From NCBI GenBank assembly GCA_018664825.1, contig JABJNO010000017.1, forward strand, positions 50,743-114,742: a stretch of DNA of 64,000 bases, written 5' to 3'. Shown here piece by piece: positions 24,540 to 57,296 of the stretch; positions within the stretch are counted from its first letter, which is position 1, and the number at the start of each line of letters is the position of its first letter. A program made the position numbers and the translations under genes. The stretch is from Candidatus Parcubacteria bacterium (GTDB taxonomy: Bacteria; Patescibacteriota; Patescibacteriia; UBA1558; GWA2-36-10). The notes beneath the pieces were generated by a model that saw only the letters and a program-made list of their open reading frames with translations, was not told the origin of the DNA and made no database searches.

Positions 24540-26264
24540 TTACTTTTTAGGGAATACTTCTTTTTTCTTTTTCATAAATCCAGTATGGCAAACATTGTGA
24601 ACATTTTTGTGATCAGCCAAGAATTCGTCATAAATTTCTTTGACTATTGGACTGTCATCCGCTAGGCGTATTTTTTTGTTGGTATCTACAGTATATAGTC
24701 CGGCGGCTCGTTTTTGGCGTATCTCATCATTTACTGGTACAGGTTGGCCTCCTCCACCGATACAACCACCAAAACAAGACATTACTTCTATATAGTCATA
24801 CTTGTTTGGTTGTTTTTTTAATTCTTCTATTATTTTGCGAGCATTTGAAATACCATTTACTACTCCTACACTGACTGTGTTACCTTTGATTTTTATCTTA
24901 GCTTCTTTGAAGCCTTCCATGCCGCGGACTTGTTTGAACTCTATACGAGGCAATCTTTTGCCAGTAATCATCTTGGCGGCAGTTCTCAAGGCTGATTCCA
25001 TCACACCACCACTAGCTCCATAAATCACTCCAGCACCTGTAGGTATTCCTAGTGATGAGTCCAATTTTTCAGGTTTAAGATTTTTGAAATCAATTTTATT
25101 TTTTCGTATCAAGTGAGATAGTTCGCGGGTAGTCAATACTTGATCAACTGGATAAATTCCATTTATTTTCATTTCTGGACGTTTTATCTCATATTTTTTG
25201 GCTACACAGGGCATTATAGATACAACGGTAATGTCTTTTGCTTTGAGGCCCATTTTTTGAGCCCAGAAAGTTTTTATCAGACCACCCATGATAATTTGTG
25301 GACTACGAACTGTAGTGAGGTTTGGTAACAATTCTGGATGATAAAATTCTGCAAATTTTACCCAACCCGGACAACAAGAAGTAAACATCGGCATCTCACC
25401 TTTGTTTTGGATACGATCTATCAACTCAGTAGCTTCTTCGATAGTTGTGACGTCAGCTCCAACGCTGACATCAAAGACATGCTTGATACCCAAGGCACGT
25501 ATAGCAGCGATAAGTTGGCCAGTGACAACACTACCTGGGGGCATGCCAAATTCTTCACCAATGGTACTACGGATAGATGGAGCAAATTGGAAGACGACTG
25601 TTTTTTTGGTATTCAAAAGATGTTTGTCTACACCCTCAAACTCACCCACGCCTTCAAAAGCTCCGACGGGGCAATGAGTCAAACATTGTCCGCAATATAT
25701 ACAGTCTTTATCTTTTTTGTCACTAGGCATTACTTCAAAAAACTTGCCTTTCTTTTTGTATTCTAAAAAATCAACACCAACTTTGTGACAAGCTTCTATA
25801 CACAACCCACAATCAATACATTTACTACTATCAAATTCCAAGGCTGGCCCAAATTTGTGAACAGGATGATGTTTTTTTCTATCAGTAAACTTGTTTATTT
25901 TTACTTTGTATTTTTTGGCATAATTACGGATTGTGCAATTTTGATAATAAATACAATCACTGCATTCTTCGCAGTGCTCACTAAAAATAAGTTCTAGATT
26001 TATTTTTCTAGCTCTTTTTATATTTGGAGAATCAGTAGTTATCTTCATGCCATCGCTTACTTCCGTACTACAAGAAGTGTGTAAACCATTCTTCCCTTTT
26101 ATTTCTACATTACAAAGACGGCAACTACCTTGTATTTTTAGATCTGGGTGATGACATAAGGTGGTAATATAAATATCATTGGCACGAGCTACATCCAAAA
26201 TACTCTGACCAGAGTCAGCTTTATATTTTTTTCCGTTGATTGTAATGTTTATTTTTTTTGGCAT
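24540..26264 (-). CDS. hydA: [FeFe]-hydrogenase catalytic subunit (N-terminal 2Fe-2S and 4Fe-4S domains plus H-cluster domain)
   Basis: H-cluster motifs TSCCPGWV, MPCVAKKYE and EVMSCFGGCIGGGGQP; the N-terminus has ferredoxin-like Cys clusters. Confidence 0.85.
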   Translation of the reverse strand: MPKKINITINGKKYKADSGQSILDVARANDIYITTLCHHPDLKIQGSCRLCNVEIKGKNGLHTSCSTEVSDGMKITTDSPNIKRARKINLELIFSEHCEECSDCIYYQNCTIRNYAKKYKVKINKFTDRKKHHPVHKFGPALEFDSSKCIDCGLCIEACHKVGVDFLEYKKKGKFFEVMPSDKKDKDCIYCGQCLTHCPVGAFEGVGEFEGVDKHLLNTKKTVVFQFAPSIRSTIGEEFGMPPGSVVTGQLIAAIRALGIKHVFDVSVGADVTTIEEATELIDRIQNKGEMPMFTSCCPGWVKFAEFYHPELLPNLTTVRSPQIIMGGLIKTFWAQKMGLKAKDITVVSIMPCVAKKYEIKRPEMKINGIYPVDQVLTTRELSHLIRKNKIDFKNLKPEKLDSSLGIPTGAGVIYGASGGVMESALRTAAKMITGKRLPRIEFKQVRGMEGFKEAKIKIKGNTVSVGVVNGISNARKIIEELKKQPNKYDYIEVMSCFGGCIGGGGQPVPVNDEIRQKRAAGLYTVDTNKKIRLADDSPIVKEIYDEFLADHKNVHNVCHTGFMKKKKEVFPKK

Positions 26265-31411: not shown

Positions 31412-33859
31412 TTATATTATTACCCTTTGATCTACCTCTGCCTCGACTACTTTTCTATCCCGTCCATATTTAATACGAGAAAGCTCTTTGATGGCCATAG
31501 CTAGCTCATAATTGCCCTTTTCAGGCAACTGGGGTTGGAAGTTAAAGGCGGGTGGATTGGCGTTGTCTATCAATAATTTTATATAACAAGTGTACTTTGG
31601 CATATTGATCAAGTCATATTCAGAGACCACTGGAGCCATTTGTTTGGCTATGACCTCAGCATCTTCTACACCAATACGATATGAAATCAAAGTACCAACA
31701 TTACCAAAGATAGAATCTTTGATGCTGGTATCCCCTCCTTGAGTAAGTTGGGCAATGTACTGATGAGCAACTATAAGATTTAGTTTGTACTTTCGAGCTT
31801 CTGACAAAATACTAGCAATACTATCTGTCATAAAGTTTTGAAACTCATCGATATATAAATAAAAATCCTCACGTTGGTCTTCTTCTATGTCTACTCGACT
31901 CATAGCAGCAAACAATAATTTTCCGATTACAATCATACCAAGTAGGTTGCTATTCATTTCACCGATTTTACCCTTGGAAAGATTCAACAATATAATTTTG
32001 TTTTCATCCATGGCTTGGCGAAAATTGAAAGCAGATTTTTCTTGGGCAATAATAGGTCTGACCAAATCATTTGAGATAAAAGGAGTAAGTTTTGAGGTAA
32101 TATAAGGTACCATGTTGGCAAGAGATGCTTCACCGCCGGCTTTTTGAGCTTCTTTTTCCCAAAAGTCTTTGACGAATCTATTTTTTACTTTTGAGAGTTT
32201 ATATTTTCGGTAGTCATCATCAGCAAGTACTTTTGGAATCTCTAGCAAGGTAGCTCCACTTTCTTTGTCATCCATGATAAGCATCATGGCATTTCTCATA
32301 TATTGCTCAAACATCGGACCACCCGTAGCTTTGAGGTCGTAGAGTTTATCAAAAATATTTAATATCTCATTGATAACAAAAACCTTTTGTTCATCATTGT
32401 CATATTCGAGCATATTCATACCCAATGGTCTTTCAGCATCAGAAGGATCAAACAAAATTACATCCTCTGCCCTTTCTTTTGGTACATGGGTCAATGCCTT
32501 TTCTACCAAATCACCATGAGGATCAACCACGCAGACTCCTTTGCCAGCTTCAATGTCTTGTTTGATGAGCCCTTCCAAAAATACAGACTTACCAGTACCA
32601 GTTTGACCAATTTCGTACATATGACGACGACGGTCTGCTGGTTTCATACGTACTAGGGTTTCTTTGCCACGATAGCTATTTACACCCAAAATAATACCAT
32701 CTTCAGACATATTGTTTGGTGGCGGAGCTTTGACGGCTTCTAACCAGTCTATGTTTGGGGTTTCGGTAGTAGGTAATGGTAGATGCATGACACTGGTCAT
32801 TTCTTCGGAATTTAGCAACAACATATTTTTTGGTATGTAGTGTCGATAGATAAAATGATGTATCAAAGTATCTGGTTTTTTTGGAATAATAGCTTTAAAA
32901 CTATTACCAAATTCATAAATATTGTATTGACTATAACTATTTAATATATCGTTTAAAATAGCACTTGAACGGACCATTTCTTTTGTAGAAACAACAATCC
33001 TAGCATTTACCTCTAGGCCTGATTTTGAGGTTTTTTCTTCTAGGCCCTTGGCACGCTCTTGTTCCATACTCGACAATGGTTGGTGTGCTTCAGGAGTTGT
33101 TGAATCTTTATCACCTTGAGTTTGTACAAAACTAAATATAAAACCAAAAACTTTGCCTGCGGCAGCTAGTCCTCCGGTGCCTCCTGCTTTGTTTAGGGCC
33201 TTTTTATAAGTCATGCCACTTTGCATTTCAGTGGCAATCTTACGTCCTCTTTTGTGCCATTTTTTAGGAGCTGATCGGAAAACATACTGTACAGCAGCGG
33301 ATTCATTTTCGGTCAGCTTACTCATGCTATTGGTGATACTTTCTAGTGGATCAGTTTCAAATTGTTTGAAGGTTTTTATGGGTAAGCTAGCATCTCCGGT
33401 AAAACGTAAATGACCAGCGGCTATCTGGCTATCATTTTGAAAAATATTGTAATCACGCATATCCTCAAAGTATATTTTGGGATATACAGCCTGGAGTTGT
33501 TGAATAAAAAACTCTTTGTATATTTTTGGGATAGCGGCATAAAAGTTTATCAAGCCATTGACCGATACTATTTCTAGAGAAAAAACATCAGTCCTAGGAG
33601 CTAGGAATTTTTTATCTACTTTTAGGCCAGCCAAAGACATAAAAAGATTTTCTATTTTACCAAGAGCATTTTGAATATACTCTTTGGTCAACTCTTCTTT
33701 TTCTTGTTTGGTATACTTGGGGATTTTTATCAAAATGACCTCAAGTTCCAAATCCTTATTGGCTTTGGTTTGTAAGTTTGAGCGAACCAAATATAAAGCT
33801 AATGCTATGACAAAAGCAAGTCCTATAACGCCCCCAATTATAATAACTGTTGTGTCCAT
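31412..33859 (-). CDS. Fused membrane N-domain plus FtsK/HerA-superfamily ATPase (VirB4/TraC-like architecture); paralog of the split pair at 9842-13357
   Basis: 815 aa with an N-terminal transmembrane helix. Walker A near residue 425 (RRRHMYEIGQTGTGKSVF...GKGVCVVDPHGDL), Walker B DFYLYIDEFQNF, and ARKYKLNLIVAHQYIAQL. Confidence 0.7.
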   Translation of the reverse strand: MDTTVIIIGGVIGLAFVIALALYLVRSNLQTKANKDLELEVILIKIPKYTKQEKEELTKEYIQNALGKIENLFMSLAGLKVDKKFLAPRTDVFSLEIVSVNGLINFYAAIPKIYKEFFIQQLQAVYPKIYFEDMRDYNIFQNDSQIAAGHLRFTGDASLPIKTFKQFETDPLESITNSMSKLTENESAAVQYVFRSAPKKWHKRGRKIATEMQSGMTYKKALNKAGGTGGLAAAGKVFGFIFSFVQTQGDKDSTTPEAHQPLSSMEQERAKGLEEKTSKSGLEVNARIVVSTKEMVRSSAILNDILNSYSQYNIYEFGNSFKAIIPKKPDTLIHHFIYRHYIPKNMLLLNSEEMTSVMHLPLPTTETPNIDWLEAVKAPPPNNMSEDGIILGVNSYRGKETLVRMKPADRRRHMYEIGQTGTGKSVFLEGLIKQDIEAGKGVCVVDPHGDLVEKALTHVPKERAEDVILFDPSDAERPLGMNMLEYDNDEQKVFVINEILNIFDKLYDLKATGGPMFEQYMRNAMMLIMDDKESGATLLEIPKVLADDDYRKYKLSKVKNRFVKDFWEKEAQKAGGEASLANMVPYITSKLTPFISNDLVRPIIAQEKSAFNFRQAMDENKIILLNLSKGKIGEMNSNLLGMIVIGKLLFAAMSRVDIEEDQREDFYLYIDEFQNFMTDSIASILSEARKYKLNLIVAHQYIAQLTQGGDTSIKDSIFGNVGTLISYRIGVEDAEVIAKQMAPVVSEYDLINMPKYTCYIKLLIDNANPPAFNFQPQLPEKGNYELAMAIKELSRIKYGRDRKVVEAEVDQRVII

Positions 33860-43316: not shown

Positions 43317-44417
43317 TTAAATATTATTTATAAGTTCTAATACTTTTTGCCTAAACACTTTTTCATCAAATTTTTTGGCGTGTTCACGAATGTTAATAGA
43401 ATTATAATTTTTATTATCAAATCTCAAAATTTTGTGAGCCAATGATTCCCAGGTCTGTTCATCAAAAAAAGTACCACTCAATCCCTCAACCACAGTTTCT
43501 AGGGCTCCACCTTTTTTCAAAGCTATTACTGGCCTACCAGAAGCCATGGCCTCGATGGCAGTGATGCCAAAATCTTCTATTTGTGGATATATAAAAGCTT
43601 TGCAACGAGCAAGGTATCGGTTTCTTTCTTCGTCTGATATTTCACCCAAAAATTCTATATTAGAATGAGCTAGTTTTTTTAATCTGCTCATTTCAGAGCC
43701 ACTACCTATTATCTTGAGTGGAAGTTTTAGATTGTTGAATGCATGGATAGCCATATCAACTTTTTTGTACGGCCTCAAACGACTGACCAACAAATAATAG
43801 TCCTCTATTTCATTAGAAATATGAAAATCATCTACATTAACGGGTGGATATATTACCTGGGCATCTTTTTTGTAATGTTTGGCTATCTTTTTGGCAATAA
43901 AATTTGAGTTGGCAATAAAATGATCCACATTTTGGGCTTTGTCATAATCCCATTGTTGTAATCTATCTAATAAACGAGGTAAAAAAGTTTTCAAAAACTT
44001 TCCCTCTGGCAAATTACCGATATATTCTTCTTGATCATCCCAAAGATATCTAGTTGGAGCATGGCAATAACATATATGGACAGCGCCTTCTTTTTTGTTT
44101 AGACCTTTTACAAAAGCAGACGAAGAACTAATAATCAGATCGTAGTCATCAAAATTTATCGCTTCCCAAGCTTTGGGCATAGATAACAAAAAATATCTAA
44201 ACATTTTGTTGATTAACGGGATTTTTTGAAGGTAAGAAGTGTATATTTTGTCCTGATCCAAAATTTGTTTGGTAATCTTTGGATTGTTTATCAATGTAAA
44301 AATAGGTGCTGTTTTGTCTAAAGATGCCAATACAACCAAGACTCTTTCTGCACCACCAATTTGAAACAAATGATCATGAGCAAGGGCAATTTTTTGCATA
44401 TTATGTTTGATCATCAC
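43317..44417 (-). CDS. Glycosyltransferase family 4 (GT-B)
   Basis: EDFGITAIEAMASGRPVIAL. Confidence 0.8.
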   Translation of the reverse strand: MMIKHNMQKIALAHDHLFQIGGAERVLVVLASLDKTAPIFTLINNPKITKQILDQDKIYTSYLQKIPLINKMFRYFLLSMPKAWEAINFDDYDLIISSSSAFVKGLNKKEGAVHICYCHAPTRYLWDDQEEYIGNLPEGKFLKTFLPRLLDRLQQWDYDKAQNVDHFIANSNFIAKKIAKHYKKDAQVIYPPVNVDDFHISNEIEDYYLLVSRLRPYKKVDMAIHAFNNLKLPLKIIGSGSEMSRLKKLAHSNIEFLGEISDEERNRYLARCKAFIYPQIEDFGITAIEAMASGRPVIALKKGGALETVVEGLSGTFFDEQTWESLAHKILRFDNKNYNSINIREHAKKFDEKVFRQKVLELINNI

Positions 44418-45813
44418 TAAGCATTGCTCTTGGAGTTTTGATTAAAATAATCATATCCAAAAGCAGTGACCAATTTTCAATATAAAATATATCTAGTTTA
44501 GCTTCTTCGGCAAAAAGTAAGTTGGCCCTACCTGATACTTGAGCCATACCGGTCATACCAGGTTTGATAGTCAAGAGTTTTTTATAACCCTTTTGATAAC
44601 GAGAGACTTCTTCTGGCTCATGTGGACGTGGCCCAACTAGGCTCATATTGCCTATTATGACGTTGAATAGCTGAGGTAACTCATCAAGAGAGGTTTTGCG
44701 TAGCCAACGACCAGCTTTTGTGACACGAGGGTCATTTTTTATTTTAAACAAAGGTCCGTCAGTGCGTTCATTTTGAGCCATGATGTCAGCTTTTAGCTTT
44801 TGAGCATCTTTGACCATAGAACGGAACTTGTACATTGTAAATATCCTACCCTTTCTACCTACACGAGACATTTTTACAAACACAGGACCTCTTGTGTCAG
44901 TTTTTATGAATATTGCAATCAAAATAAACAAAGGTGATAAAACTATAGTCAATAAAATAGAAACTATAATATCAAAAGTCCGCTTGGCAACTCGTCGCCA
45001 ACCATCAAGTGGTGTGCCTTGGATTTCTATGATTGGGATTCCGGCAATACTGTTGAGATCAATATTTAGATTTTGAGCTTGAAAAAGATTGGCTACATAA
45101 CGAAGAGTGATTTGATTTTCCTGACAAAAGGTAAGTAGGTTTAGAGCGTTATCTTTGTTGATTGAAGAATCAGATTGAAATATATTGTCTATTTCCTTTT
45201 CTTCAATCATTTGCATTGCTCCGGGATGACTCTGTAGTTGTTCTAGTGTTTCAAATTCATCTATTACTTTGAAACCTAGTTTTGGACGAGTATTATAATT
45301 TTCTACAATAATTTTTCGAGCAGACTCAGGACCTAGTACTATCACCCTAGCTAGACCTTTTCCTTTTTTTAAAAATAAATTTCTAACGGCGAAAACAAAT
45401 ATTCTAGATGTAAAGATATAAATAATACCAAGAGCCCAACTCAATATAATAATAAAACGGGAAGAAAATAATTCTCTTTGCCAAAATATAGCTAGCACAA
45501 TAAAAATAAGCAGAGTAGAAACTCCTGTGATTATCTGAGGCAATTCTCGGGCTAGTTTTTTGGTCTTCATAGTATAAAAACCAGATATAGCAAAAACAAT
45601 AATGGCGAATACAGCAATTTTTAAAATTAAAATTAAATACTCATCATAAGGCATTTCATAAAAAACAGGCCTCATATTGCTAATAAAATCAGAGAAACGC
45701 AAAAAATAGGCTGATATCCCAGCTAGGATTACCAGTCCAAAGTCTATAAAAACCAATGAAATATTGGTAATAAAATCGGCCTTTTTCATATATAAATAGT
45801 ACCATATTATCAA
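44401..45813 (-). CDS. Polyprenyl-phosphate hexose-1-phosphate transferase (WbaP/WcaJ-like priming sugar transferase)
   Basis: N-terminal transmembrane helices plus C-terminal RGPVFVKMSRVGRKGRIFTMYKFRSM...DELPQLFNV...LVGPRP. Confidence 0.85.
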   Translation of the reverse strand: MIIWYYLYMKKADFITNISLVFIDFGLVILAGISAYFLRFSDFISNMRPVFYEMPYDEYLILILKIAVFAIIVFAISGFYTMKTKKLARELPQIITGVSTLLIFIVLAIFWQRELFSSRFIIILSWALGIIYIFTSRIFVFAVRNLFLKKGKGLARVIVLGPESARKIIVENYNTRPKLGFKVIDEFETLEQLQSHPGAMQMIEEKEIDNIFQSDSSINKDNALNLLTFCQENQITLRYVANLFQAQNLNIDLNSIAGIPIIEIQGTPLDGWRRVAKRTFDIIVSILLTIVLSPLFILIAIFIKTDTRGPVFVKMSRVGRKGRIFTMYKFRSMVKDAQKLKADIMAQNERTDGPLFKIKNDPRVTKAGRWLRKTSLDELPQLFNVIIGNMSLVGPRPHEPEEVSRYQKGYKKLLTIKPGMTGMAQVSGRANLLFAEEAKLDIFYIENWSLLLDMIILIKTPRAMLSDDQT

Positions 45814-45825
45814 ATTTTAGCAATA

Positions 45826-46179
45826 AAAAAAGGCTTAAAACCTAATAAGCCGAATTCTGTACCCCGAAGGGCGGTAATCATCTATCTAGGATGTGTATTG
45901 CTACACATCTCAAGCAACCTACCCGTTCCATAAAGGAACCAACTTGGTCTTGCACCTAATAAAAGTTTACCTCTTTCGGTATGTCACCATACTGACGCGT
46001 TAGCTAATTATCTAACGTTTTCACCCTTATCCGCAAGCGGAAGGAATATTCTCTGTTGCACTTGTTCTATTACTAGCTCACACTAGCAACGGTTGGCGTT
46101 ACCAACTATCATTTAATGGTGTTCGGACTTTCCTCTCCCTGAGTAAACTCAGGCAGCGATTACCTTGGTTTTAAGCCTT
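45826..46179 (-). ncRNA. rnpB: RNase P RNA (bacterial type A-like)
   Basis: On the minus strand: P1 AAGGCUUAAAACC pairs with GGUUUUAAGCCUU; P4 5' strand GAGAGGAAAGUCCGAAC; AUAAGGGUGAAAACG; CCUAGAUAGAUGAUUACC; P4 3' strand GGGGUACAGAAUUCGGCUUAUUAGG; a U8 tail. Confidence 0.85.
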
Positions 46180-46215
46180 ATGCATATATATACCATATTT
46201 ATGATATTTTGTCAA

Positions 46216-46773
46216 CTATTTAGCTATTATTATTCTACCCCTAACTTGTCCATTACGTTCCAATTCCATGATCTTGTCTTCGGTAATTTTTTGGTATGAA
46301 TCAGGATTAAGATAGACGTCTCCTTCAATTACAATATTTTTAAAAAACATAGCTGGGTCAATATCACGATCTTTTAAAAATAAATCTCCCTTTAGTCGCA
46401 CCTCCATAAAAGATGAATCTTTTAGGCCCAGTTTATCTTGATTGGTAAACGCAAAGGCATTTAATTCTGAATAACTATCATCTATTGTTAATTTAAACAT
46501 GTGTCCACCTGGTTTTGCAAATCTAATATATTCCCCAGTATCAATACCTCCATAATTTTTGGAAACAATCTTTTGTATTTGCATATGTTTAACACGAGCA
46601 TTGACTTCATGCACTACAATATAAAAATTAGTTAGATTACTTTTAATTTCATAACTCATTTTACGGATATTTTCTCTAGTAAATTCATCGTTATAAAAAC
46701 TAGACATCTTTTCGAGGTAAGTTTGTAACTTTTGATAGAGTTGTTTTAATTTTGGGCAATGTTGTTTATCCAT
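46216..46773 (-). CDS. Array protein i: N-terminal Cys-helix module plus C-terminal LRR-like (KGDxxL) repeats
   Basis: MDKQHCPKLKQLYQKLQTYLEKM; C-terminus ELERNGQVRGRIIIA resembles that of members c and e. Confidence 0.5.
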   Translation of the reverse strand: MDKQHCPKLKQLYQKLQTYLEKMSSFYNDEFTRENIRKMSYEIKSNLTNFYIVVHEVNARVKHMQIQKIVSKNYGGIDTGEYIRFAKPGGHMFKLTIDDSYSELNAFAFTNQDKLGLKDSSFMEVRLKGDLFLKDRDIDPAMFFKNIVIEGDVYLNPDSYQKITEDKIMELERNGQVRGRIIIAK

Positions 46774-46776
46774 AAA

Positions 46777-47385
46777 CTATCCTTTCGTTTTCCAACCTTT
46801 AATTCTTTCATTATCTTTTAAATTGTCCAAAACCTGCCCACCTATATCTGATGCTTGTTTGGGTGACAAAACAATAAAACCATCAACGGTAAAATAACTT
46901 TGAACAACATTTATAAAATGTGGATGTACAAAATTTAAACTAGCAACGTCTAGATCACCTTTATAAACAATACTTACAGGTTTTAATATGGGGTCAGTTA
47001 GTCTATCCATATGCAAAAATAACCAAGATCTAAATGCAGGAGAGCCCTGGTTTATTATAAGTTCAGCATCTTTAGAATTGTAATCTAAGTATTTACTAGC
47101 CATCTCGGGACTAATGGGATCTACAATACCGGTTCCGGTAATTTTTTCTTCCCTCAAAAGAAGCTTTGATTGACTGTGTAAACGATCCATAAATTTTAAT
47201 ACTTCCAAAAGTTCATGAACAATATCATAATCATCCCCCATGTCTGCGTCTATATTTCGGAATTTAGCTATCCAGTCCTTACTGTTGTCACGAGTAAGCT
47301 CAATATTTTCTGGCAAACCCAAAAGCTCGGCTTGTTTTTTTAGCTTGGCAATATATTCATTGAGTTGTAAGCAAAATTTATTCAT
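46777..47385 (-). CDS. Array protein h: Cys-helix N-module plus KGD..FVH..DG C-module (family f/g/h)
   Basis: MNKFCLQLNEYIAKLKKQAELL; VYKGDLDVASLNFVHPHFINVVQSYFTVDGFIVLS. Confidence 0.5.
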   Translation of the reverse strand: MNKFCLQLNEYIAKLKKQAELLGLPENIELTRDNSKDWIAKFRNIDADMGDDYDIVHELLEVLKFMDRLHSQSKLLLREEKITGTGIVDPISPEMASKYLDYNSKDAELIINQGSPAFRSWLFLHMDRLTDPILKPVSIVYKGDLDVASLNFVHPHFINVVQSYFTVDGFIVLSPKQASDIGGQVLDNLKDNERIKGWKTKG

Positions 47386-47386
47386 A

Positions 47387-47965
47387 TTAATCTTCTAATC
47401 TATAATCATGTATTTGCCCCGTCCTTCGGGCATCCAATAAACTAGCCATGATACTTACGTTTGTTTTTTCTCTAGAAATAATTATATTAGCATCTATCAT
47501 AATAAAATCTGGCCATGGTTCTAAAACAATATCATCAAATCCTACGTCATTATTTATCAATACTTTTTTGATACCAAATTTCTTCAGCCTTGATCTGTCT
47601 TCATTAAAAAAATTAATAAGATGTGTTGTATAAAGATTTTCGGGAACATTGCTCAAAATCAACATCTCATTTTCTAGTGTGGTATTTTTATCAAATATTT
47701 TATGAAATGCCACTAAACTGCCAATAGTCATTGTTTCCCCTTCAGATTTAAAGGCTTTTCTAGCATATTTTATTAGCTCACTACCCAAAAGGTCCTTTCC
47801 CATGGATAATCCTACAATTTTATCTATGTTTATTAAGATAGAATTTTTTGTAGCATGAGCTATATCAAAATCACCAATTTTTAAAGCTTCAGCAAGGCTT
47901 ATAAAAAGTTTTTGAGCATTAACTATATATCCTCTAGCTTTTTTACATTTTTGTTTTTTTGTCAT
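47387..47965 (-). CDS. Array protein g (PWPDF family)
   Basis: KQKCKKARGYIVNAQKLFISLAEAL; LINFFNEDRS...EPWPDFIMID. Confidence 0.5.
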   Translation of the reverse strand: MTKKQKCKKARGYIVNAQKLFISLAEALKIGDFDIAHATKNSILINIDKIVGLSMGKDLLGSELIKYARKAFKSEGETMTIGSLVAFHKIFDKNTTLENEMLILSNVPENLYTTHLINFFNEDRSRLKKFGIKKVLINNDVGFDDIVLEPWPDFIMIDANIIISREKTNVSIMASLLDARRTGQIHDYRLED

Positions 47966-48588
47966 CCTACAATTTTATAATCCTTTATAAATCCCTTTCT
48001 TTTGTGGTGCTCCAAAATATTCATAGCATCATCATTTCCATCTATTTGTTCTTGACCCACTATCAGTGTACCATCTGTGTGTACAAAATCAGGCCAAGGC
48101 TTTGTATGAACCCACGCAAAAGAAACGTCGCCCTTAAATTTTAATGTCTTTACTGCAAACTTTTTTTGTCTTTGTCCTATTTTATCAAAACTAAGTCCTG
48201 TTCCTGAAAAAAAATTAATCAAATTGGCAATAAACTTTGGATCACCCATATTTTTTATTTCCAATGTCGCATCATCTTCAAAATTAACATGTCTCAAAAC
48301 GCTCATGCTCAAATTTTTTTCAACTTCAGGTGATATTTCTTTTCCTTCTTTTTTCTTGTCTTCCTCTATGTAGGCCCTAAAATCCTCAGTAAAACCTATT
48401 TTTGTAAGTATTTTTTTGGCGTCGATGATGTTTATGAGAACCTCTTTTTTGAATAAACCAATAGAGGGTGCCCCACCTCCTTGTTTGTACTCAGCCACGC
48501 TAGCCAAAGCCAAGTCATAATGATACTTGGCTTGCCCAAGGTAATCCTTTAAAGCAAGGCAATATAATTCTTTAGTTGATTTATCCAT
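47962..48588 (-). CDS. Array protein f (PWPDF family)
   Basis: KELYCLALKDYLGQAKYHYDLALASV; LINFFSGTGL...KPWPDFVHTDGTLIV; 4-nt overlap. Confidence 0.5.
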   Translation of the reverse strand: MDKSTKELYCLALKDYLGQAKYHYDLALASVAEYKQGGGAPSIGLFKKEVLINIIDAKKILTKIGFTEDFRAYIEEDKKKEGKEISPEVEKNLSMSVLRHVNFEDDATLEIKNMGDPKFIANLINFFSGTGLSFDKIGQRQKKFAVKTLKFKGDVSFAWVHTKPWPDFVHTDGTLIVGQEQIDGNDDAMNILEHHKRKGFIKDYKIVG

Positions 48589-49195
48589 TGTTGTATATTA
48601 CATTTTTACTTCTTATCCTGCCGTCAGCTACTGCTTGTTCGGCTATATCTTTTAGCTTGTATGAGCAAGCTAGTGTATTGCAGTTTAGGTCTACGGGCAA
48701 TTCTGTTATATTCGTATCACTAATATCCAACGTTCCCCTTACTGTCAAATTTCTTGGTAATTTTTTGACTCCTGTACCTTTTAGGCCTAGCGTACCTTTT
48801 ATAGTAAGGCTAGAGGGTAATTCTATAACCTCTTTTTGGTCAGTTAAATATAGATCGTTATTAAAGGTAGGTTTATTGAAATCATCAAATTTTAGATACT
48901 TTATCAAAACATTATGATCTAGAAAATTTTCAAGCCAATCAAAGACTCGCGTTCGAGCAGTAATCAAAGTAAAGGCAGTTTTTACTTTTTGATTAAATCC
49001 TTTTATACGCATATCGGCCTCAGTAAAATCTTTAGTGACAACTATATTGGGAATATCAGTAGAAAAACTAACCAACTCCTCTGCTGCCCACTCCAAATCT
49101 GTACGAGCTTTATCACAAAGCTGTATTCTTTCCATTTTTTCTTGAGCAGTCTTAACTTTATTTCTATCTTTCCATGCTTTATCAAAATCTGACAT
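48581..49195 (-). CDS. Array protein e (LRR-like repeat family)
   Basis: IQLCDKARTDLEWAAEEL; 20-aa repeats LPSSLTIKGTLGLKGTGVKK / LPRNLTVRGTLDISDTNITE / LPVDLN... Confidence 0.5.
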   Translation of the reverse strand: MSDFDKAWKDRNKVKTAQEKMERIQLCDKARTDLEWAAEELVSFSTDIPNIVVTKDFTEADMRIKGFNQKVKTAFTLITARTRVFDWLENFLDHNVLIKYLKFDDFNKPTFNNDLYLTDQKEVIELPSSLTIKGTLGLKGTGVKKLPRNLTVRGTLDISDTNITELPVDLNCNTLACSYKLKDIAEQAVADGRIRSKNVIYNNG

Positions 49196-49196
49196 A

Positions 49197-49427
49197 TTAT
49201 GACATATTTTTAATATTTCTTATTCTACTACGCATATGTCCAATATTCCACTTTAAAGATGCGAGGTATGGTTTGGCACTTTGGTTGAATAGCAATTTAC
49301 TTCTACTCTCAGCCGTGGCTTTGATAGCACGTCCAAAATCTTCAATAATATCCTTATTTGCTGCAATAGAATTCTTCACAAATTGACATCGTTCTGATTT
49401 TAGTTGGTTTTTTGTTTGTTTATTCAT
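49197..49427 (-). CDS. Array protein d (76 aa, N-module only)
   Basis: SERCQFVKNSIAANKDIIEDF. Confidence 0.45.
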   Translation of the reverse strand: MNKQTKNQLKSERCQFVKNSIAANKDIIEDFGRAIKATAESRSKLLFNQSAKPYLASLKWNIGHMRSRIRNIKNMS

Positions 49428-49430
49428 AAA

Positions 49431-49997
49431 TTAGGCTACAATTATTTTGCCTGCTATCTTGCCAGCATCCTTTAGTCTTTGGGCTTCTTTTAGCTGATTT
49501 TTATTTACACTTATACCTCCTTGTACTTCCAATGTATCAGGAAGGTGTCCTATACCTGACATTTCTATCCGTAAAGTACCCTTGATTACTAAATTTTCCG
49601 GCAATGATTTTATAGCTATATTGTCAACATTTAAATCTGTATATATGTATATATTTTTAGCTTCATACGCCACATTCTGCATTTCCCATTTACCAAATTT
49701 ATCATCAACAGCTCTTGGCCATAAATCTTTCAAAAACCTCCTAAAAGCTGCACTACTATGTGCCCTTAGCTCCTTTTCAATAGATTTTCGTTTATTTCTT
49801 AACTCTTTTATTCCAAAAACAAGCACCGATAAATACCGCTGAAATGGCTCAGATCTTTTATTTTTAATAGCATTATCTAGTGCGTGCTCAAAAACCCCCA
49901 AGTTACCTTTGACTGATGAAATAATACCTTTAGCCTCCTGACACAATTGAGGGAGTGGTATTGGTTTTTTTTCTTGTTCTTCTTGTCCTGGATGCAT
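49431..49997 (-). CDS. Array protein c (LRR-like repeat family)
   Basis: PQLCQEAKGIISSVKGNLGVFEHAL; repeats LPENLVIKGTLRIEMSGIGH / LPDTLEVQGGISVNKNQLKE; C-terminus GKIAGKIIVA. Confidence 0.5.
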   Translation of the reverse strand: MHPGQEEQEKKPIPLPQLCQEAKGIISSVKGNLGVFEHALDNAIKNKRSEPFQRYLSVLVFGIKELRNKRKSIEKELRAHSSAAFRRFLKDLWPRAVDDKFGKWEMQNVAYEAKNIYIYTDLNVDNIAIKSLPENLVIKGTLRIEMSGIGHLPDTLEVQGGISVNKNQLKEAQRLKDAGKIAGKIIVA

Positions 49998-49998
49998 A

Positions 49999-50265
49999 TT
50001 AAAATTTCTTTAAAAAATTTTCATCATCTTTATCAATATCTACTGTTATGACATCTTTACTAAAAACAAATAAAGGGTCAATGTTATCTATTACTAAATT
50101 AATTATTTTGCCTTTTTCAACTACAAAAACCCTTTTTGATTCTTTTAATTCTCCTGAATCTTTTGGATTCGGCACTAATTCATCAAAGGCTTGTCTAGTA
50201 ATCTTTAATTGATAATAAAGTTGTCGGCATTTTTTGGTTCTATGTTTTGATCTACCTTTATCCAT
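49999..50265 (-). CDS. Array protein b (88 aa; NPKD family)
   Basis: KKCRQLYYQLKITRQAFDELVPNPKD. Confidence 0.45.
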   Translation of the reverse strand: MDKGRSKHRTKKCRQLYYQLKITRQAFDELVPNPKDSGELKESKRVFVVEKGKIINLVIDNIDPLFVFSKDVITVDIDKDDENFLKKF

Positions 50266-50482
50266 TTTTTTTGTTTATTATCATACTATGCCTAGCAAGC
50301 TCAAAGCCAGGACAACTAATTTCTACCAAGTTGGTTAACATATTTATTTCTTTGTCATAATCTTCACCAAAAAAATTTAAAAGTTTGTCTTTTGGATTCA
50401 AGGGTATTTTTTCTAGAGCACTTTTAGCATTTCCTAATTGAGCATAGAGTGTGACGCATCTATTCTTTTTATCTCTAAGCAT
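50258..50482 (-). CDS. Array protein a (74 aa; NPKD family)
   Basis: NRCVTLYAQLGNAKSALEKIPLNPKD; overlaps b by 8 nt. Confidence 0.45.
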   Translation of the reverse strand: MLRDKKNRCVTLYAQLGNAKSALEKIPLNPKDKLLNFFGEDYDKEINMLTNLVEISCPGFELARHSMIINKKNG

Positions 50483-50483
50483 A

Positions 50484-51578
50484 TTATTTCAAAATAAAAT
50501 CTAAAGTTTCTCTAGCACATTTTTCCCAAGAAAACTGACGAGATCTTTGTAATCCTTTGATAGCCAATGTTTCTTGAAGCTTTTCATCAGTTGTTATTTT
50601 ATCCATCTTTTGAGCAATATCATCTATGTTGTCAGGATCAAAATAAAGCGCTGAATCAACAGCAACCTCTCTAAAAACAGGTATATCAGAGGCCAAAATT
50701 GGCACCTTACAGGCCATTGCTTCTATAAGTGGTATCCCAAAGCCCTCAAACTTACTAGGAAACACAAAGGCTCGCGCAGAAGCCATAAGTCTCGGGTAGT
50801 TGGCTTGACTGACATAGCCCAATATTATTATATCATCTTTTATTTCAGGATCATTGGCCAATCTCTCTATCTCGTCATAACCAAAATTACCAGGTCTACC
50901 ACCAAGCACCAATGGCCATTTACGATTTGTCTTTTTATAAGCCTTTATCAAATTGGCCACATTTTTTTTGGTTTCTAGTCGTCCGATATATAAAAAGAAG
51001 TCATCGGGCAAATCATGAATATCAATAAATTGCATTTTTTCATGTTTTTCCAAAATTTTAAAAGTGTCAGCATTGTATCCTAGATGAGTCACCTTTATTT
51101 CCTCTTTGTACTTTGGAAAATATTTTTTGATATCTTTTTTTGTAGCTTCTGATACTGTAACTATCTTTTTGGCTTTTTTGACTGCAAGCTTATGAGATAT
51201 CTGCTGGTATATTCTTTCTAGTGGATGATATAGTTCTGGGTTTCGGAAAAAACCTAAATCATGGATAGTGACTATCACCTCACCCTTTGTAAGTAGTGGT
51301 ACAGCATTGCTAGCAAAAAATTTATCAACTGGATTTTTGATTAGTTCCAAACTCAGGCGCATGTGTGTCCAAAACTTTTTGAAAGGCCAGGGCAAGTTTT
51401 TGATAACAAAATTAGCTGGCGTTTCTTTGAGAGCGTCAGCTAAAATATTATTATAATAGACCACAAATTTATTCTCGTGGTCAAGTTTTTTGAATTGTTG
51501 CAAAAGGTGCCAAGCATACCATTCGGTGCCGGTCTTATATTTTTTGTTTGCCCGGGTTGCTTCTAGACCTATAGTCAT
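50484..51578 (-). CDS. Glycosyltransferase family 4 (GT-B)
   Basis: EGFGIPLIEAMACKVPILASD. Confidence 0.8.
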   Translation of the reverse strand: MTIGLEATRANKKYKTGTEWYAWHLLQQFKKLDHENKFVVYYNNILADALKETPANFVIKNLPWPFKKFWTHMRLSLELIKNPVDKFFASNAVPLLTKGEVIVTIHDLGFFRNPELYHPLERIYQQISHKLAVKKAKKIVTVSEATKKDIKKYFPKYKEEIKVTHLGYNADTFKILEKHEKMQFIDIHDLPDDFFLYIGRLETKKNVANLIKAYKKTNRKWPLVLGGRPGNFGYDEIERLANDPEIKDDIIILGYVSQANYPRLMASARAFVFPSKFEGFGIPLIEAMACKVPILASDIPVFREVAVDSALYFDPDNIDDIAQKMDKITTDEKLQETLAIKGLQRSRQFSWEKCARETLDFILK

Positions 51579-51590
51579 TTGCTTTAAAAT

Positions 51591-52604
51591 TTATTTTGCA
51601 GATAAAATACTTCGTTTGTATGATTCCAAATTTTCGAGGGCTATTCCAGTACCCCTGGCCACACACAACAATGCGTCATCAGCTACATAAGCAGGTACTC
51701 CAGTTGCCTGTGACAAAAGCTTGTCCATGTTGCGTAGTAGTGATGTACCACCAGACAATACCATACCCTTATCCATAATGTCGGCTGATAGTTCGGGAGG
51801 AGTTTGATACAAGACAGATTTTACAGCAGATATCAATCCTTGGAGCTCATTTTGTAGAGCCTCAGTGACATCATCAGAGTTTACAATGATAGTTTTTGGT
51901 AAACCAGTGACCATATCTCTACCTTTTATTTCCATGTCTATTTTTTCATCTTTGGGTAAATATTGTGCAGAGCCAATTTTTATTTTTACATCTTCAGCAG
52001 TTCTCTCACCAATAGCCAAATTATATTTTTTCTTTATATACTCACCAATAGCAAGGTCATATTTGTTACCACCAATCCGAACTGAAGTGTTGGCTACAAC
52101 ACCACCCAGGGATATTACTGCAATTTCACTAGTACCTCCACCCATATCAACAATCATATGACCACTAGCACTACCAATAGGAATATCAGCTCCTATAGCA
52201 GCCGCGATAGGCTCTTTGATGATATAAGCTGCTTTTGCACCAGCATTTAGAGTGGCGTCAATCACAGCTCTTCGTTCGGTAGATGTGATACCAGCAGGTA
52301 CAGCAATCATGACTTCAGGACGAAAAATCTTCATACCACCAACTGCTTTGTTGATAAAGTATTTAAGCATGTTTTCGGTAGTTTTGTAATCAGCTATTAC
52401 TCCGTTTTTTAAAGGGCGAGAAGCAACGATAGAATCGGGTGTCCGACCAATCATTTCTTTGGCTTCGTCCCCTACTGCCATTACTTTTTTATCCAAAACA
52501 GACATAGCTACCACAGATGGCTCATGTATTACAATCCCACGTTTTGGTATATAGACCAAAGTATAAGTTGTTCCTAGATCAATGCCTATTTTTTTTATAA
52601 ACAT
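51591..52604 (-). CDS. mreB: MreB-family actin homolog (second copy, Mbl/MreBH-like)
   Basis: GIDLGTTYTLVY, DMGGGTSEIAVISLGG and the actin-fold phosphate and adenosine motifs. Confidence 0.85.
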   Translation of the reverse strand: MFIKKIGIDLGTTYTLVYIPKRGIVIHEPSVVAMSVLDKKVMAVGDEAKEMIGRTPDSIVASRPLKNGVIADYKTTENMLKYFINKAVGGMKIFRPEVMIAVPAGITSTERRAVIDATLNAGAKAAYIIKEPIAAAIGADIPIGSASGHMIVDMGGGTSEIAVISLGGVVANTSVRIGGNKYDLAIGEYIKKKYNLAIGERTAEDVKIKIGSAQYLPKDEKIDMEIKGRDMVTGLPKTIIVNSDDVTEALQNELQGLISAVKSVLYQTPPELSADIMDKGMVLSGGTSLLRNMDKLLSQATGVPAYVADDALLCVARGTGIALENLESYKRSILSAK

Positions 52605-52605
52605 A

Positions 52606-53064
52606 CTAATTTATCTCCAAAACTTTATAATGAGTCACCCCGCTTGGTAATTCAACTTCGATGATGTCACCTATCTTTTTATCCATAAGCGCTTCACCTA
52701 TTGGAGACTCTAGAGAAATTCTATTGTTTGCAGGATCTGCTTCTGTACTACCAACAATAGTAAATTCAGATTGAAGGCCGTCTTTTTCTACTTTTACCTT
52801 ACAGCCCACCCCAACAGTTTCTCCTCCGCTATTTGCTTGTACAATAGTAGATGTCTTGGTCAGGTGCTCAAGTTCCATGATTCTACCCTCAATAAAAGCC
52901 CGTTCTTCTTTGGCTTCTTGATATTCTGCATTTTCGGATAAATCTCCATATTCTTTAGCAGTTTTTATACGTTCAGCAACGCGAATACGACCATCTGTCT
53001 TTAGACCTTCTAACTCTAGCATTAATTTATCAAACCCTTCTTGGGTTAATACCTTTTTACTCAT
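52606..53064 (-). CDS. greA: Transcription elongation factor GreA
   Basis: N-terminal coiled-coil with the GDLSENAEY motif; C-terminal FKBP-like domain. Confidence 0.9.
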   Translation of the reverse strand: MSKKVLTQEGFDKLMLELEGLKTDGRIRVAERIKTAKEYGDLSENAEYQEAKEERAFIEGRIMELEHLTKTSTIVQANSGGETVGVGCKVKVEKDGLQSEFTIVGSTEADPANNRISLESPIGEALMDKKIGDIIEVELPSGVTHYKVLEIN

Positions 53065-56252: not shown

Positions 56253-57296
56253 TTACATGTCTTTGGTAGACGGCAACAATATATCTTTTAGGTTATCTAT
56301 CTCGTCCAATACTTTGCCGGTACCACGGACAACTGCAGTCAATGGTTCGTCGGTGATATGTACGGGCATTTTTGTTTCTTGAGATATTAGCTCATCTAGT
56401 CCACGCAACAATGCTCCGCCGCCAGTCAGCACCATACCCTTTTCGTACAAGTCAGAAACTAGCTCTGGAGGAGTATTTTCAATGGTAGATTTTATATTTT
56501 CTACTATCAACTTGATTGGTTTGGCAATAGACTCTCTGATATTGGCATCCGTGATCTCAACTTGCTTTGGTAGCCCAGTCAATAAGTCTCTACCACGCAT
56601 TATGGCTTCTATTGGTTCTTTCAAAGGAATTACAGAACCTATTTGCATTTTTATTTTTTCAGCAGTCATTTCACCCAACAAAATATTGAATTTGTCGCGA
56701 GCATATTGGATGATTGATTCATTTAGTTTGTCCCCTGCTAGTTTCAATGATTTCCAAGAAACAACACCACCAAGAGATATCACGGCAATTTCTGTAGTAC
56801 CCCCACCAATATCTACTATCATACTTCCAGTTGCCTCTTGGATCGGTAATCCAGCCCCAATAGCAGAAGCCATTGGCTCTTCTATAAGTAATACCTGAGA
56901 AGCACCAGCGCCCATGACAGCATCTTCGACGGCCTTTCTTTCTACTTCTGTCACATCAAGTGGGATAGCAATCACTACTCTAGGACGTGGCATAAAAGTA
57001 AAAGAATCTCGGTGAACTTTTTCTATAAAATGCTTGATCATTTTTTCTGAAATTTCAAAATCAGAAATCACACCATCGATAAGTGGTCTACTAACAGTAA
57101 TGTGTTGAGGAGTTTTTCCGAGCATGATTTTTGCGTCTTCACCAATCGCTACAATTTTTTCTGTACGATTATTGATAGCAACTACTGAGGGCTCGTTTAT
57201 GACAATACCTTGGTCTTTTACATAAACCAAAGTATTGGCAGTCCCCAAATCCATACCTATGTCTTTTGAAAAATTTTTAAAAACTTTTTTAAACAT
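56253..57296 (-). CDS. mreB: Rod shape-determining protein MreB
   Basis: GMDLGTANTLVYV, DIGGGTTEIAVISLGG; lies upstream of mreCD. Confidence 0.9.
   Translation of the reverse strand: MFKKVFKNFSKDIGMDLGTANTLVYVKDQGIVINEPSVVAINNRTEKIVAIGEDAKIMLGKTPQHITVSRPLIDGVISDFEISEKMIKHFIEKVHRDSFTFMPRPRVVIAIPLDVTEVERKAVEDAVMGAGASQVLLIEEPMASAIGAGLPIQEATGSMIVDIGGGTTEIAVISLGGVVSWKSLKLAGDKLNESIIQYARDKFNILLGEMTAEKIKMQIGSVIPLKEPIEAIMRGRDLLTGLPKQVEITDANIRESIAKPIKLIVENIKSTIENTPPELVSDLYEKGMVLTGGGALLRGLDELISQETKMPVHITDEPLTAVVRGTGKVLDEIDNLKDILLPSTKDM

Follow-up and report, generated by a model that had tools for sequence, protein, structure and literature searches.

A Tandem Array of Cysteine-Helix and Leucine-Rich Repeat Proteins beside rnpB in a Candidatus Parcubacteria Bacterium

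The DNA analyzed here is a stretch of 64,000 nucleotides from Candidatus Parcubacteria bacterium (assembly GCA_018664825.1, contig JABJNO010000017.1, positions 50,743 to 114,742 of the forward strand), hereafter the window. An array of nine small genes, a to i, occupies positions 46216 to 50482 of the window on the minus strand. The array constitutes a tandemly duplicated, clade-restricted family in which a new cysteine-anchored N-domain, predicted to form a coiled coil, is joined in six of the nine proteins to a known type of leucine-rich repeat (LRR). The explanation favored here is that a single ancestral gene expanded in tandem within one clade to yield a set of binding adaptors. Taken as a whole, this explanation is given an even chance of being correct. 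Its descriptive part is held with high confidence and its functional part only tentatively. The organism is a marine or aquatic member of the Patescibacteria, or Candidate Phyla Radiation (CPR). Genomes of this group carry many ORFans that are specific to single lineages and have no assigned part in the episymbiotic lifestyle.

Domain architecture and relationships of the nine proteins

The open reading frame (ORF) map of the window contains the nine minus-strand ORFs of 74 to 208 amino acids that were described in an earlier note on this DNA. The tight packing described there is also present, with overlaps of 8, 8, and 4 nucleotides and otherwise spacers of 1 to 3 nucleotides. All nine proteins were scanned against Pfam, PHROGs, NCBIfam, and PADLOC, and no match above threshold was obtained for any of them, in agreement with the earlier statement that they belong to no recognized family. 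Word-indexed homology searches with protein f, with a profile of six paralogs, and with a profile of 11 sequences returned only the query itself or near-orthologs. The matches listed from pattern scans of metagenome and viral contigs with a profile of g were spurious. Neither a signal peptide nor a transmembrane segment was found in the array proteins, for which the maximum Kyte-Doolittle value of a 19-residue window is ≤1.2. The ORFs are already maximal.

A cysteine is present within residues 5 to 27 of all nine proteins, as previously claimed, and is the sole cysteine in six of the nine. Since a cysteine in residues 2 to 27 is found in 15% of the other 59 proteins of the window, the probability of nine such proteins out of nine is approximately 4e-8. 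When each protein's own cysteines are placed at random as the null model, P = 9e-7. All 14 orthologs from two related populations retain the N-terminal cysteine. It is encoded by either TGC or TGT within DNA that is not conserved, which places the selection on the residue. For the same reasons a nucleotide-level motif at this codon was rejected.

The residues that follow the cysteine show a regular pattern. Across 23 sequences, hydrophobic residues fill 110 of the 115 cells (96%) at positions C+3, +7, +10, +14, and +17, versus 26% for the other positions, and position C+11 is mostly K, R, or Q. The motif of the N-module can be written as C-x-x-h-[KRY]-x-x-h-x-x-h-[KRQ]-x-x-h-x-x-h, where h is a hydrophobic residue. 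The heptad register is unique in that a high score is obtained only when the cysteine is placed at the first core position, a. The a/d periodicity extends over at least two heptads, as in coiled-coil and helical-bundle modules. The segment is thus predicted to be a coiled-coil or helical-bundle element with the cysteine as its first core residue. The cysteine is preceded by 4 to 26 residues, of which those at positions −4 to −1 are mostly K, R, Q, E, or N. Assignment as a bacterial lipoprotein was rejected, given that neither a hydrophobic signal-peptide core nor a lipobox precedes the cysteine and that no hydrophobicity window exceeds the value given above. A profile search of the PDB with the N-domain alignment provided only insignificant matches to coiled coils, such as occludin and SKA1. 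The N-domain was modeled by AlphaFold2 as a helical hairpin with low confidence (predicted local distance difference test, pLDDT, of 50 to 65).

The C-terminal parts of the long proteins are related to FlrP, a protein-binding spacer of the polar flagellar motor of Vibrio alginolyticus (bioRxiv 10.64898/2025.12.04.692373; PDB 8z5u, 8z5w, and 8z60) and the only relative with a characterized role. Tandem units that fit the consensus LPxxLxVxGxLxLxxTxI are present in c and e, and FlrP matches the LRR part of c and e with an E value of 2.1e-11. When 1.84 billion representative proteins were searched exhaustively with a profile, 594 matched, 89 of them at ≤1e-10. Almost all of the 594 are matched through profile positions 115 to 165, in 3 to 23 stretches per protein. 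These external proteins contain multiple repeats of the unit LPxNLxVxGxLxLxxTxIxx. Only three full-length matches were found outside the population of the window, and all three are orthologs (P0009, P0013, and P0052). The N-domain was found in no external protein in this search.

An independent external profile was built from the last two repeats and the recurrent cap, TP(L/I)S.KYT.EEI.KMIEDKGG.V.G.I. It matches e (1.7e-11), c (6e-8), and i (8.8e-4, over 51 columns that include the cap). Proteins g (0.047), h (0.12), and f (0.68) align in the same register below significance. A marginal match of the cap profile to the ORF at 1193-1780 is treated as chance because that sequence reads as a ClpP-like protease. 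In phmmer comparisons with the external LRR proteins, 140 of 141 were matched by c and e. Each of f, g, h, and i had one marginal external match, always to a member of the LRR family and never to a decoy. The AlphaFold2 model of residues 150-208 of f (pLDDT 70-87) has the strand-strand-strand-helix-strand order that is seen in e. All six long proteins are assigned a C-terminal part composed of two to three FlrP-type LRR units and a cap. The data show this for c and e and give weaker support for i, and for f, g, and h it is likely. The cap consists of one helix and a terminal strand, G-x-I-x-G-x-I.

The paralogs were compared by hhalign with ortholog-enriched profiles. Gene a (50258..50482, minus strand, 74 amino acids, Cys9, with an LLNFFGED motif) and its paralog b (49999..50265, minus strand, 88 amino acids, Cys13) encode the N-module only and match one another with a value of 1.4e-4. 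Gene c (49431..49997, minus strand) encodes 188 amino acids, in which a helical coiled-coil N-domain with Cys19 is followed by two FlrP-type LRR units and a C-cap. Gene e (48581..49195, minus strand, 204 amino acids) has the same layout with Cys27 and three LRR units, and the full-length proteins c and e align over 136 columns (8.7e-8). Between them lies gene d (49197..49427, minus strand, 76 amino acids, Cys14), which corresponds to the N-domain of c (2e-6 over 60 columns) and has orthologs in the contigs L092 and L091 described below. Additional cysteines occur in the third LRR unit of the e family, at positions 172 and 176 of e, and are kept in all three orthologs as DLNCNTLACS, DLFCNTLCCS, and DLHCGVLCCS.

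In gene f (47962..48588, minus strand, 208 amino acids), a helical N-domain with Cys10 is followed by a degenerate LRR-like part (KPWPDF) and a cap. Gene g (47387..47965, minus strand, 192 amino acids, Cys7) is its full-length paralog (2.6e-15 over 183 columns). Genes h and i are each other's nearest paralogs (1.2e-5 over 172 columns). The former (46777..47385, minus strand, 202 amino acids) combines a helical N-domain with Cys5, a degenerate LRR-like part, and a cap. The latter (46216..46773, minus strand, 185 amino acids) combines a helical N-domain with Cys6, an LRR-like unit, and a clear C-cap (ITEDKIMELERNGQVRGRII). The f/g and h/i profiles match weakly (0.0066 over 57 columns).

These relationships require corrections to the earlier note, in which the C-terminal parts were sorted into three families that had been swapped onto a constant N-terminal module. 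Protein h does not belong with f and g, and i is no specific partner of c and e. The C-terminal parts are not three unrelated modules, as c, e, and i match the same external LRR-plus-cap profile. Similarity in the N- and C-terminal parts co-varies along whole proteins and the nearest paralogs are physical neighbors, which indicates whole-gene tandem duplication followed by truncation and not module swapping. The neighbor pairs a/b, c/e, f/g, and h/i are products of whole-gene duplication, and truncation gave rise to members that contain only the N-domain, namely d from a c-like copy and, in the related array of L091, an ortholog of f that has been cut to its N-domain; a and b likewise consist of the N-module only. 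The ancestral architecture is the Cys-helix with a further helix, two to three units of the 20-21-residue FlrP-type LRR that form a short β-solenoid, the fold of the LRR superfamily, and a family-specific cap.

The similarity of the N-modules to one another was also part of the earlier note. It is significant within clusters and only marginal between them (0.002-0.1). When the N-module segments were compared alone, the matches a-b (3e-5), c-d (5e-7), c-e (8e-4), e-g (2e-4), and h-i (6e-5) were all obtained in the register of the cysteine, as was that of b (2e-5) with x, the 95-amino-acid product of the first gene of the L091 array. The feature that the modules share is real, whereas their common descent, which sequence comparison alone does not prove for all nine, is only suggested.

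Orthologous arrays and genomic setting

The nine-gene locus is present at ≥99.9% identity in nine other metagenome contigs. Diverged orthologous arrays were recovered from two related populations. The first, from the PJEL metagenome, is carried by contigs L092 and L090, the latter found among metagenome and viral contigs with a hand-made 63-nucleotide degenerate pattern. It contains at least eight genes in the same order as the window (a b c d e f ... f g h i), and the protein identities from a to h are 93, 52, 48, 59, 61, 69, 54, and 69%; the ortholog of g at 54% is P0013 of L090, and that of h, also on L090, is recorded at 70% as well. The second array, on the Logan contig L091, contains only five genes between the equivalent glycosyltransferase gene and rnpB. 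These are x, which resembles a and b, and orthologs of d (43% identity in the BLAST local alignment and 36.5% over the full alignment), e (70%), f (63 amino acids, the N-domain only), and h (54%). The number of members therefore differs between related populations, nine in the window versus five in L091, as the earlier note had asked to be checked, and the gene order is conserved rather than shuffled.

The ratio of nonsynonymous to synonymous substitution rates (dN/dS) is 0.10-0.45 for the array genes versus 0.02-0.09 for the flanking genes. The dN of the array genes is 4-8 times that of the adjacent glycosyltransferase gene. From these values the array genes are fast-evolving yet constrained, and the nine ORFs are real genes under purifying selection. 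The most conserved member is a, with 93% identity to its ortholog and a dN/dS of 0.10.

Glycosyltransferase and sugar transferase genes lie on both sides of the array and rnpB, as first noted. Upstream is a GT4-family glycosyltransferase gene (50484..51578, minus strand, Pfam Glycos_transf_1 2.6e-35), whose stop codon ends 1 nucleotide before the ATG of gene a. It is kept in most of the relatives examined and is absent from L013, which retains the surrounding order. Downstream, the stop codon of gene i is directly followed by a promoter read from the sequence (46187..46215, minus strand, TTGACA, a 17-nucleotide spacer with TG, and TATATA), which is conserved in L091. This promoter escaped a consensus scan because its −10 hexamer ends in A. 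The gene rnpB, which encodes the RNase P RNA of bacterial class A (45830..46175, minus strand, Rfam RF00010, 219.7 bits), is adjacent as reported, 40 nucleotides downstream of gene i on the same strand, and is found at the equivalent position in seven relatives. It is followed on its 3′ side by an initiating sugar transferase gene (Bac_transf, 44401..45813, minus strand, Pfam 3.7e-67) and then by three more glycosyltransferase genes. No promoter of its own was found for the array, which is probably co-transcribed with the mreB-GT4 operon.

The flanking sugar transferase was used as the anchor for locus comparison; 566 related loci were found, of which 80 were kept. In the examined relatives with a 59-66% identical sugar transferase, the order mreB-mreC-mreD-pbp2-greA-mreB-GT4-rnpB-sugar transferase-GT-GT is conserved, where GT is glycosyltransferase. 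Five of these relatives (L010, L016, L017, L018, and L038) pass directly from GT4 to rnpB through spacers of 43-405 nucleotides that contain no annotated gene, although that of L038 holds one ORF of 57 amino acids. When the nine proteins were compared by phmmer with every ORF within 10 kb of the anchor in the 80 loci, no matches were found. Because of these two results the array is regarded as a lineage-restricted insertion at the GT4-rnpB junction, and the description of an accessory block that interrupts a conserved cell-envelope locus is upheld. At this syntenic site nine genes are present in the window, at least eight in PJEL, five in L091, and none in the five relatives. Unrelated ORFans without a Pfam match occupy the junction in L015 (8251-9423, 390 amino acids) and L014 (685-2490, 601 amino acids, with a hydrophobic N-terminus). 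The junction thus behaves as a variable spot.

The further proposal that rnpB served as an integration hotspot does not fit the locus. The array lies 5′ of rnpB, upstream of the conserved promoter, and the block, which consists of the nine ORFs only, contains no integrase or recombinase. Nothing convincing that would bound an island was revealed by a search for att-like and inverted repeats and for promoters or terminators inside the block, and no meaningful flanking repeats were seen. The proteins that flank the array show 76-96% identity between the window and L091, which indicates that the array has been inherited vertically within a small clade. The GC content of the array is slightly lower than that of its neighbors (0.26-0.35 vs 0.34-0.39).

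Several other features of the window were recorded. Two mreB paralogs (51591-52604 and 56253-57296, minus strand) flank mreC-mreD-pbp2-greA and are kept in all of the close relatives examined. No Shine-Dalgarno sequence was found upstream of the 13 genes examined (window 44401-53064), mreB and greA included, and these regions are simply A/T-rich; the organism may not use initiation led by such a sequence. A glycosyltransferase gene 3′ of the sugar transferase gene (window 43317-44417) is called as two ORFs of 281 and 98 amino acids in L001 (9794-10899). L001 is otherwise 99.9% identical, and its alignment to the window has a single gap, which may reflect either a frameshift variant or an assembly error. 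The large subunit of an [FeFe]-hydrogenase (24540-26264, minus strand, with 2Fe-2S and 4Fe-4S domains, Pfam 4.6e-91) fits a fermentative CPR metabolism. Two large proteins (9842-11848 and 31412-33859, both minus strand) contain coupling-protein domains of the TrwB/VirD4 type, which are ATPases like those of type IV secretion systems, and one of the two also has a treble-clef zinc finger.

Proposed function and alternative explanations

In the favored explanation, the array proteins would be soluble and the Cys-helix would serve as a module for homo- or hetero-oligomerization. In a parallel bundle the cysteines would fall in one layer of the core, where a disulfide staple or a metal site could form. 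The full-length members would supply LRR heads that bind a protein target, and the members with only an N-domain (a, b, d, and the truncated f of L091) would enter equivalent bundles without a head. The overall product would be a set of diversified binding adaptors. A bolder version can be framed, in which the Cys-heptad helix is an undescribed assembly or targeting module that would co-assemble up to nine paralogs into covalently or metal-stapled hetero-oligomers. The result would be a combinatorial, multi-headed LRR binder for recognition or manipulation of a host by a CPR episymbiont, its composition tuned by gene gain and loss (nine vs five) and by fast divergence. This version is speculative and we consider it improbable.

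A number of points weigh against the binding-adaptor explanation. Oligomerization, the role of the cysteine, and the binding target are all inferred. A lone cysteine in the cytoplasm normally forms no stable disulfide. Because the models of the N-domain have pLDDT values of only 50-65, the heptad core could serve the intramolecular packing of a hairpin rather than oligomerization. When a generic hidden Markov model (HMM) of the N-module was evaluated by leaving out one family at a time, the held-out members were not separated from a set of 4603 decoy ORFs, the top decoys being coiled-coil noise from a Peribacteria locus. In view of the failure of this HMM, the common ancestry of a and b with the long proteins is only suggested (0.012-0.1). 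The likely LRR assignment of f, g, and h depends on transitivity and on the weak same-register matches (0.047-0.68 and 0.0066).

In one alternative, the proteins would be exported host-interaction factors in which the Cys-helix acts as a non-classical signal for targeting, anchoring, or loading and the LRR heads bind proteins of the host cell or its surface. CPR bacteria rely on hosts, which speaks for such a role. Interaction is a classic role of LRRs, and secreted effectors employ the bacterial subtype of 20 residues. The multi-repeat relative P0098 has weak NCBIfam matches to XopL (8e-5) and SlrP (3e-3). The fast protein evolution, the variable copy number, the two VirD4/TrwB-like ATPases of the window, and the placement of small helical proteins before longer ones (a and b before c, d before e), which is loosely reminiscent of LXG/Lap arrangements, can be added. 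However, no signal peptide, lipobox, or transmembrane segment is present in ORFs that are already maximal, and no secretion genes are adjacent, the VirD4-like genes being more than 12 kb away. The charged stretch before the cysteine varies in length from 4 to 26 residues, and no WxG or LXG motif was seen when the sequences were read. Export is therefore considered unlikely.

The array could instead be domesticated cargo of a mobile element, for example a phage or plasmid anti-defense or defense set, that landed at a variable spot beside rnpB and was then duplicated. FlrP-type LRR proteins are frequent on plasmids, with 131 PLSDB records from Citrobacter, Klebsiella, Sodalis, Vibrio, and their relatives. 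The early region of Edwardsiella phage Edno5 also encodes one, as does an IMG/VR contig, and others are small uncultured-phage proteins of BFVD; the latter are annotated "Leucine-rich repeat" and the plasmid and phage proteins as hypothetical. Fusions of the repeat to PcfJ-like, amidoligase_2, and MutS_I domains are typical of mobile elements. The unrelated ORFans at the junctions of L015 and L014 and the slightly lower GC content of the array point in the same direction. These observations are offset by the lack of an integrase, transposase, or att repeats in the block and of any match in PADLOC or PHROGs, and by the embedding of the array in a housekeeping operon with a junction of 1 nucleotide. 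Stable inheritance at a single site in three lineages and the lack of the N-domain in any external protein among the 1.84 billion representatives also argue against cargo of this kind, and we likewise regard this origin for the array as unlikely.

The earlier note compared the array with polymorphic effector/immunity families, that is, a constant N-terminal handle with swapped C-terminal modules. The common Cys-helix, the clustering of small genes, and fast evolution would suit such a system. Nevertheless, the C-terminal parts are mutually homologous LRR-type modules rather than unrelated toxins, their similarity co-varies with that of the N-terminal parts, and the gene order is kept between populations rather than shuffled. 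No toxin, nuclease, deaminase, peptidase, or other enzymatic domain was found in Pfam, NCBIfam, PADLOC, or PHROGs. The neighbors are mreB, GT4, rnpB, and sugar transferase genes with no cognate secretion system, and among the large window genes scanned only the two distant VirD4-like ATPases could relate to secretion. This explanation is very improbable and already largely refuted.

Still less credible, by analogy with LRR-plus-NEL E3 ligases, is a small helical enzyme domain whose invariant cysteine would be a thioester-forming nucleophile and whose LRR would be a substrate arm: although a single invariant cysteine does sit in an all-helical domain beside a bacterial 20-residue LRR, and BFVD phage proteins annotated as E3 ubiquitin ligases are matched through the LRR, no sequence or profile match to NEL or any other enzyme family was obtained, the cysteine occupies a core heptad position typical of a structural residue, the helical domain has only 60-110 residues, and no other invariant polar residue could complete an active site.

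Nine hypothetical proteins become a defined two-domain family, for which the proposed structure is a core-cysteine coiled coil with a mini-LRR binding head, and the family is linked to the large and almost wholly uncharacterized FlrP-type LRR class of plasmids and phages. If mixed oligomers do form through the cysteine layer, the array would be a compact case in which a minimal genome diversifies its binders combinatorially. Without such assembly, it would be an ordinary tandem expansion of paralogs at a variable intergenic junction.

Comparison with known systems

The FlrP-type LRR proteins appear to be a large, uncharacterized family associated with mobile elements, whose repeat has no dedicated Pfam model. 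Since the repeat is spread over plasmids and phages and FlrP functions in protein binding, it can be viewed as a promiscuous binding module common in mobile elements, and horizontal acquisition of the array's founder is possible. A search of the literature on PcfJ and on Patescibacteria together with LRRs returned nothing relevant.

FlrP itself has a Sec signal peptide and about seven or eight repeats, is periplasmic and flagellum-associated, and is found only in the Vibrionaceae (bioRxiv 10.64898/2025.12.04.692373). The array proteins have two to three repeats, a Cys-coiled-coil N-domain, and no signal peptide, whereas FlrP lacks a helical N-domain. No flagellar genes were found among the window genes examined. 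Orthology with FlrP was rejected on the basis of the missing hydrophobic N-terminus, the two to three repeats, and the N-domain, which is foreign to FlrP.

The LRR proteins of plasmids and phages (for example WP_007372303.1 of a Citrobacter plasmid, Edno5_0047, and metagenomic PcfJ-like-LRR fusions) have the repeat of the array. The metagenomic proteins P0084, P0106, P0116, P0123, P0139, P0141, and P0150 share the C-terminal cap as well, which aligns to the end of protein i. Proteins of this class differ from the array in having at least five repeats and other partner domains (PcfJ-like, amidoligase_2, MutS_I, or a C-terminal YRENCGY domain). They are encoded by single genes rather than arrays, and none has the N-terminal Cys-helix. 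In metagenomic proteins (P0012, P0039, P0030, and P0100), fusion of the LRR array to a PcfJ-like domain at the N-terminus, whose motif is of the HC(V/T)GG type, is recurrent, and other fusions are to amidoligase_2 or MutS_I. The second conserved C-terminal domain, ...YRENCGY..RTIFA.W.GKEFRI.AGCFFGSI..FE.AV..KY..., is common to Edno5_0047 (L094, 5001-5744), the IMG/VR gene (L095, 7938-8447), P0065, and P0146 and is absent from the array proteins. The Edno5 gene is located between the cI repressor gene and exo/recT.

The likeness to the type III-secreted effectors with 20-residue LRRs (YopM, IpaH/SspH/SlrP, and XopL) is at the generic LRR level only; NEL and other effector domains are missing from the array proteins, which are also not accompanied by a type III secretion system.

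The LXG/WXG100 type VII arrays of Gram-positive bacteria place genes for small helical partners before the gene of a protein whose N-domain is helical. Neither a WxG or LXG motif nor a toxin domain occurs in the array, and the window contains no EssC-type ATPase or other type VII secretion gene. The match of the hairpin to these systems is non-specific, and the confidence of the model in that region is low.

The Vlp and Vsa lipoproteins of Mycoplasma, which exemplify the variable families of bacteria with reduced genomes, are likewise fast-evolving tandem paralogs with a conserved N-terminal region that contains one cysteine. In those proteins the cysteine follows a hydrophobic signal peptide and a lipobox and is lipidated, whereas the 4 to 26 residues that precede the cysteine of the array proteins are charged and contain no hydrophobic core.

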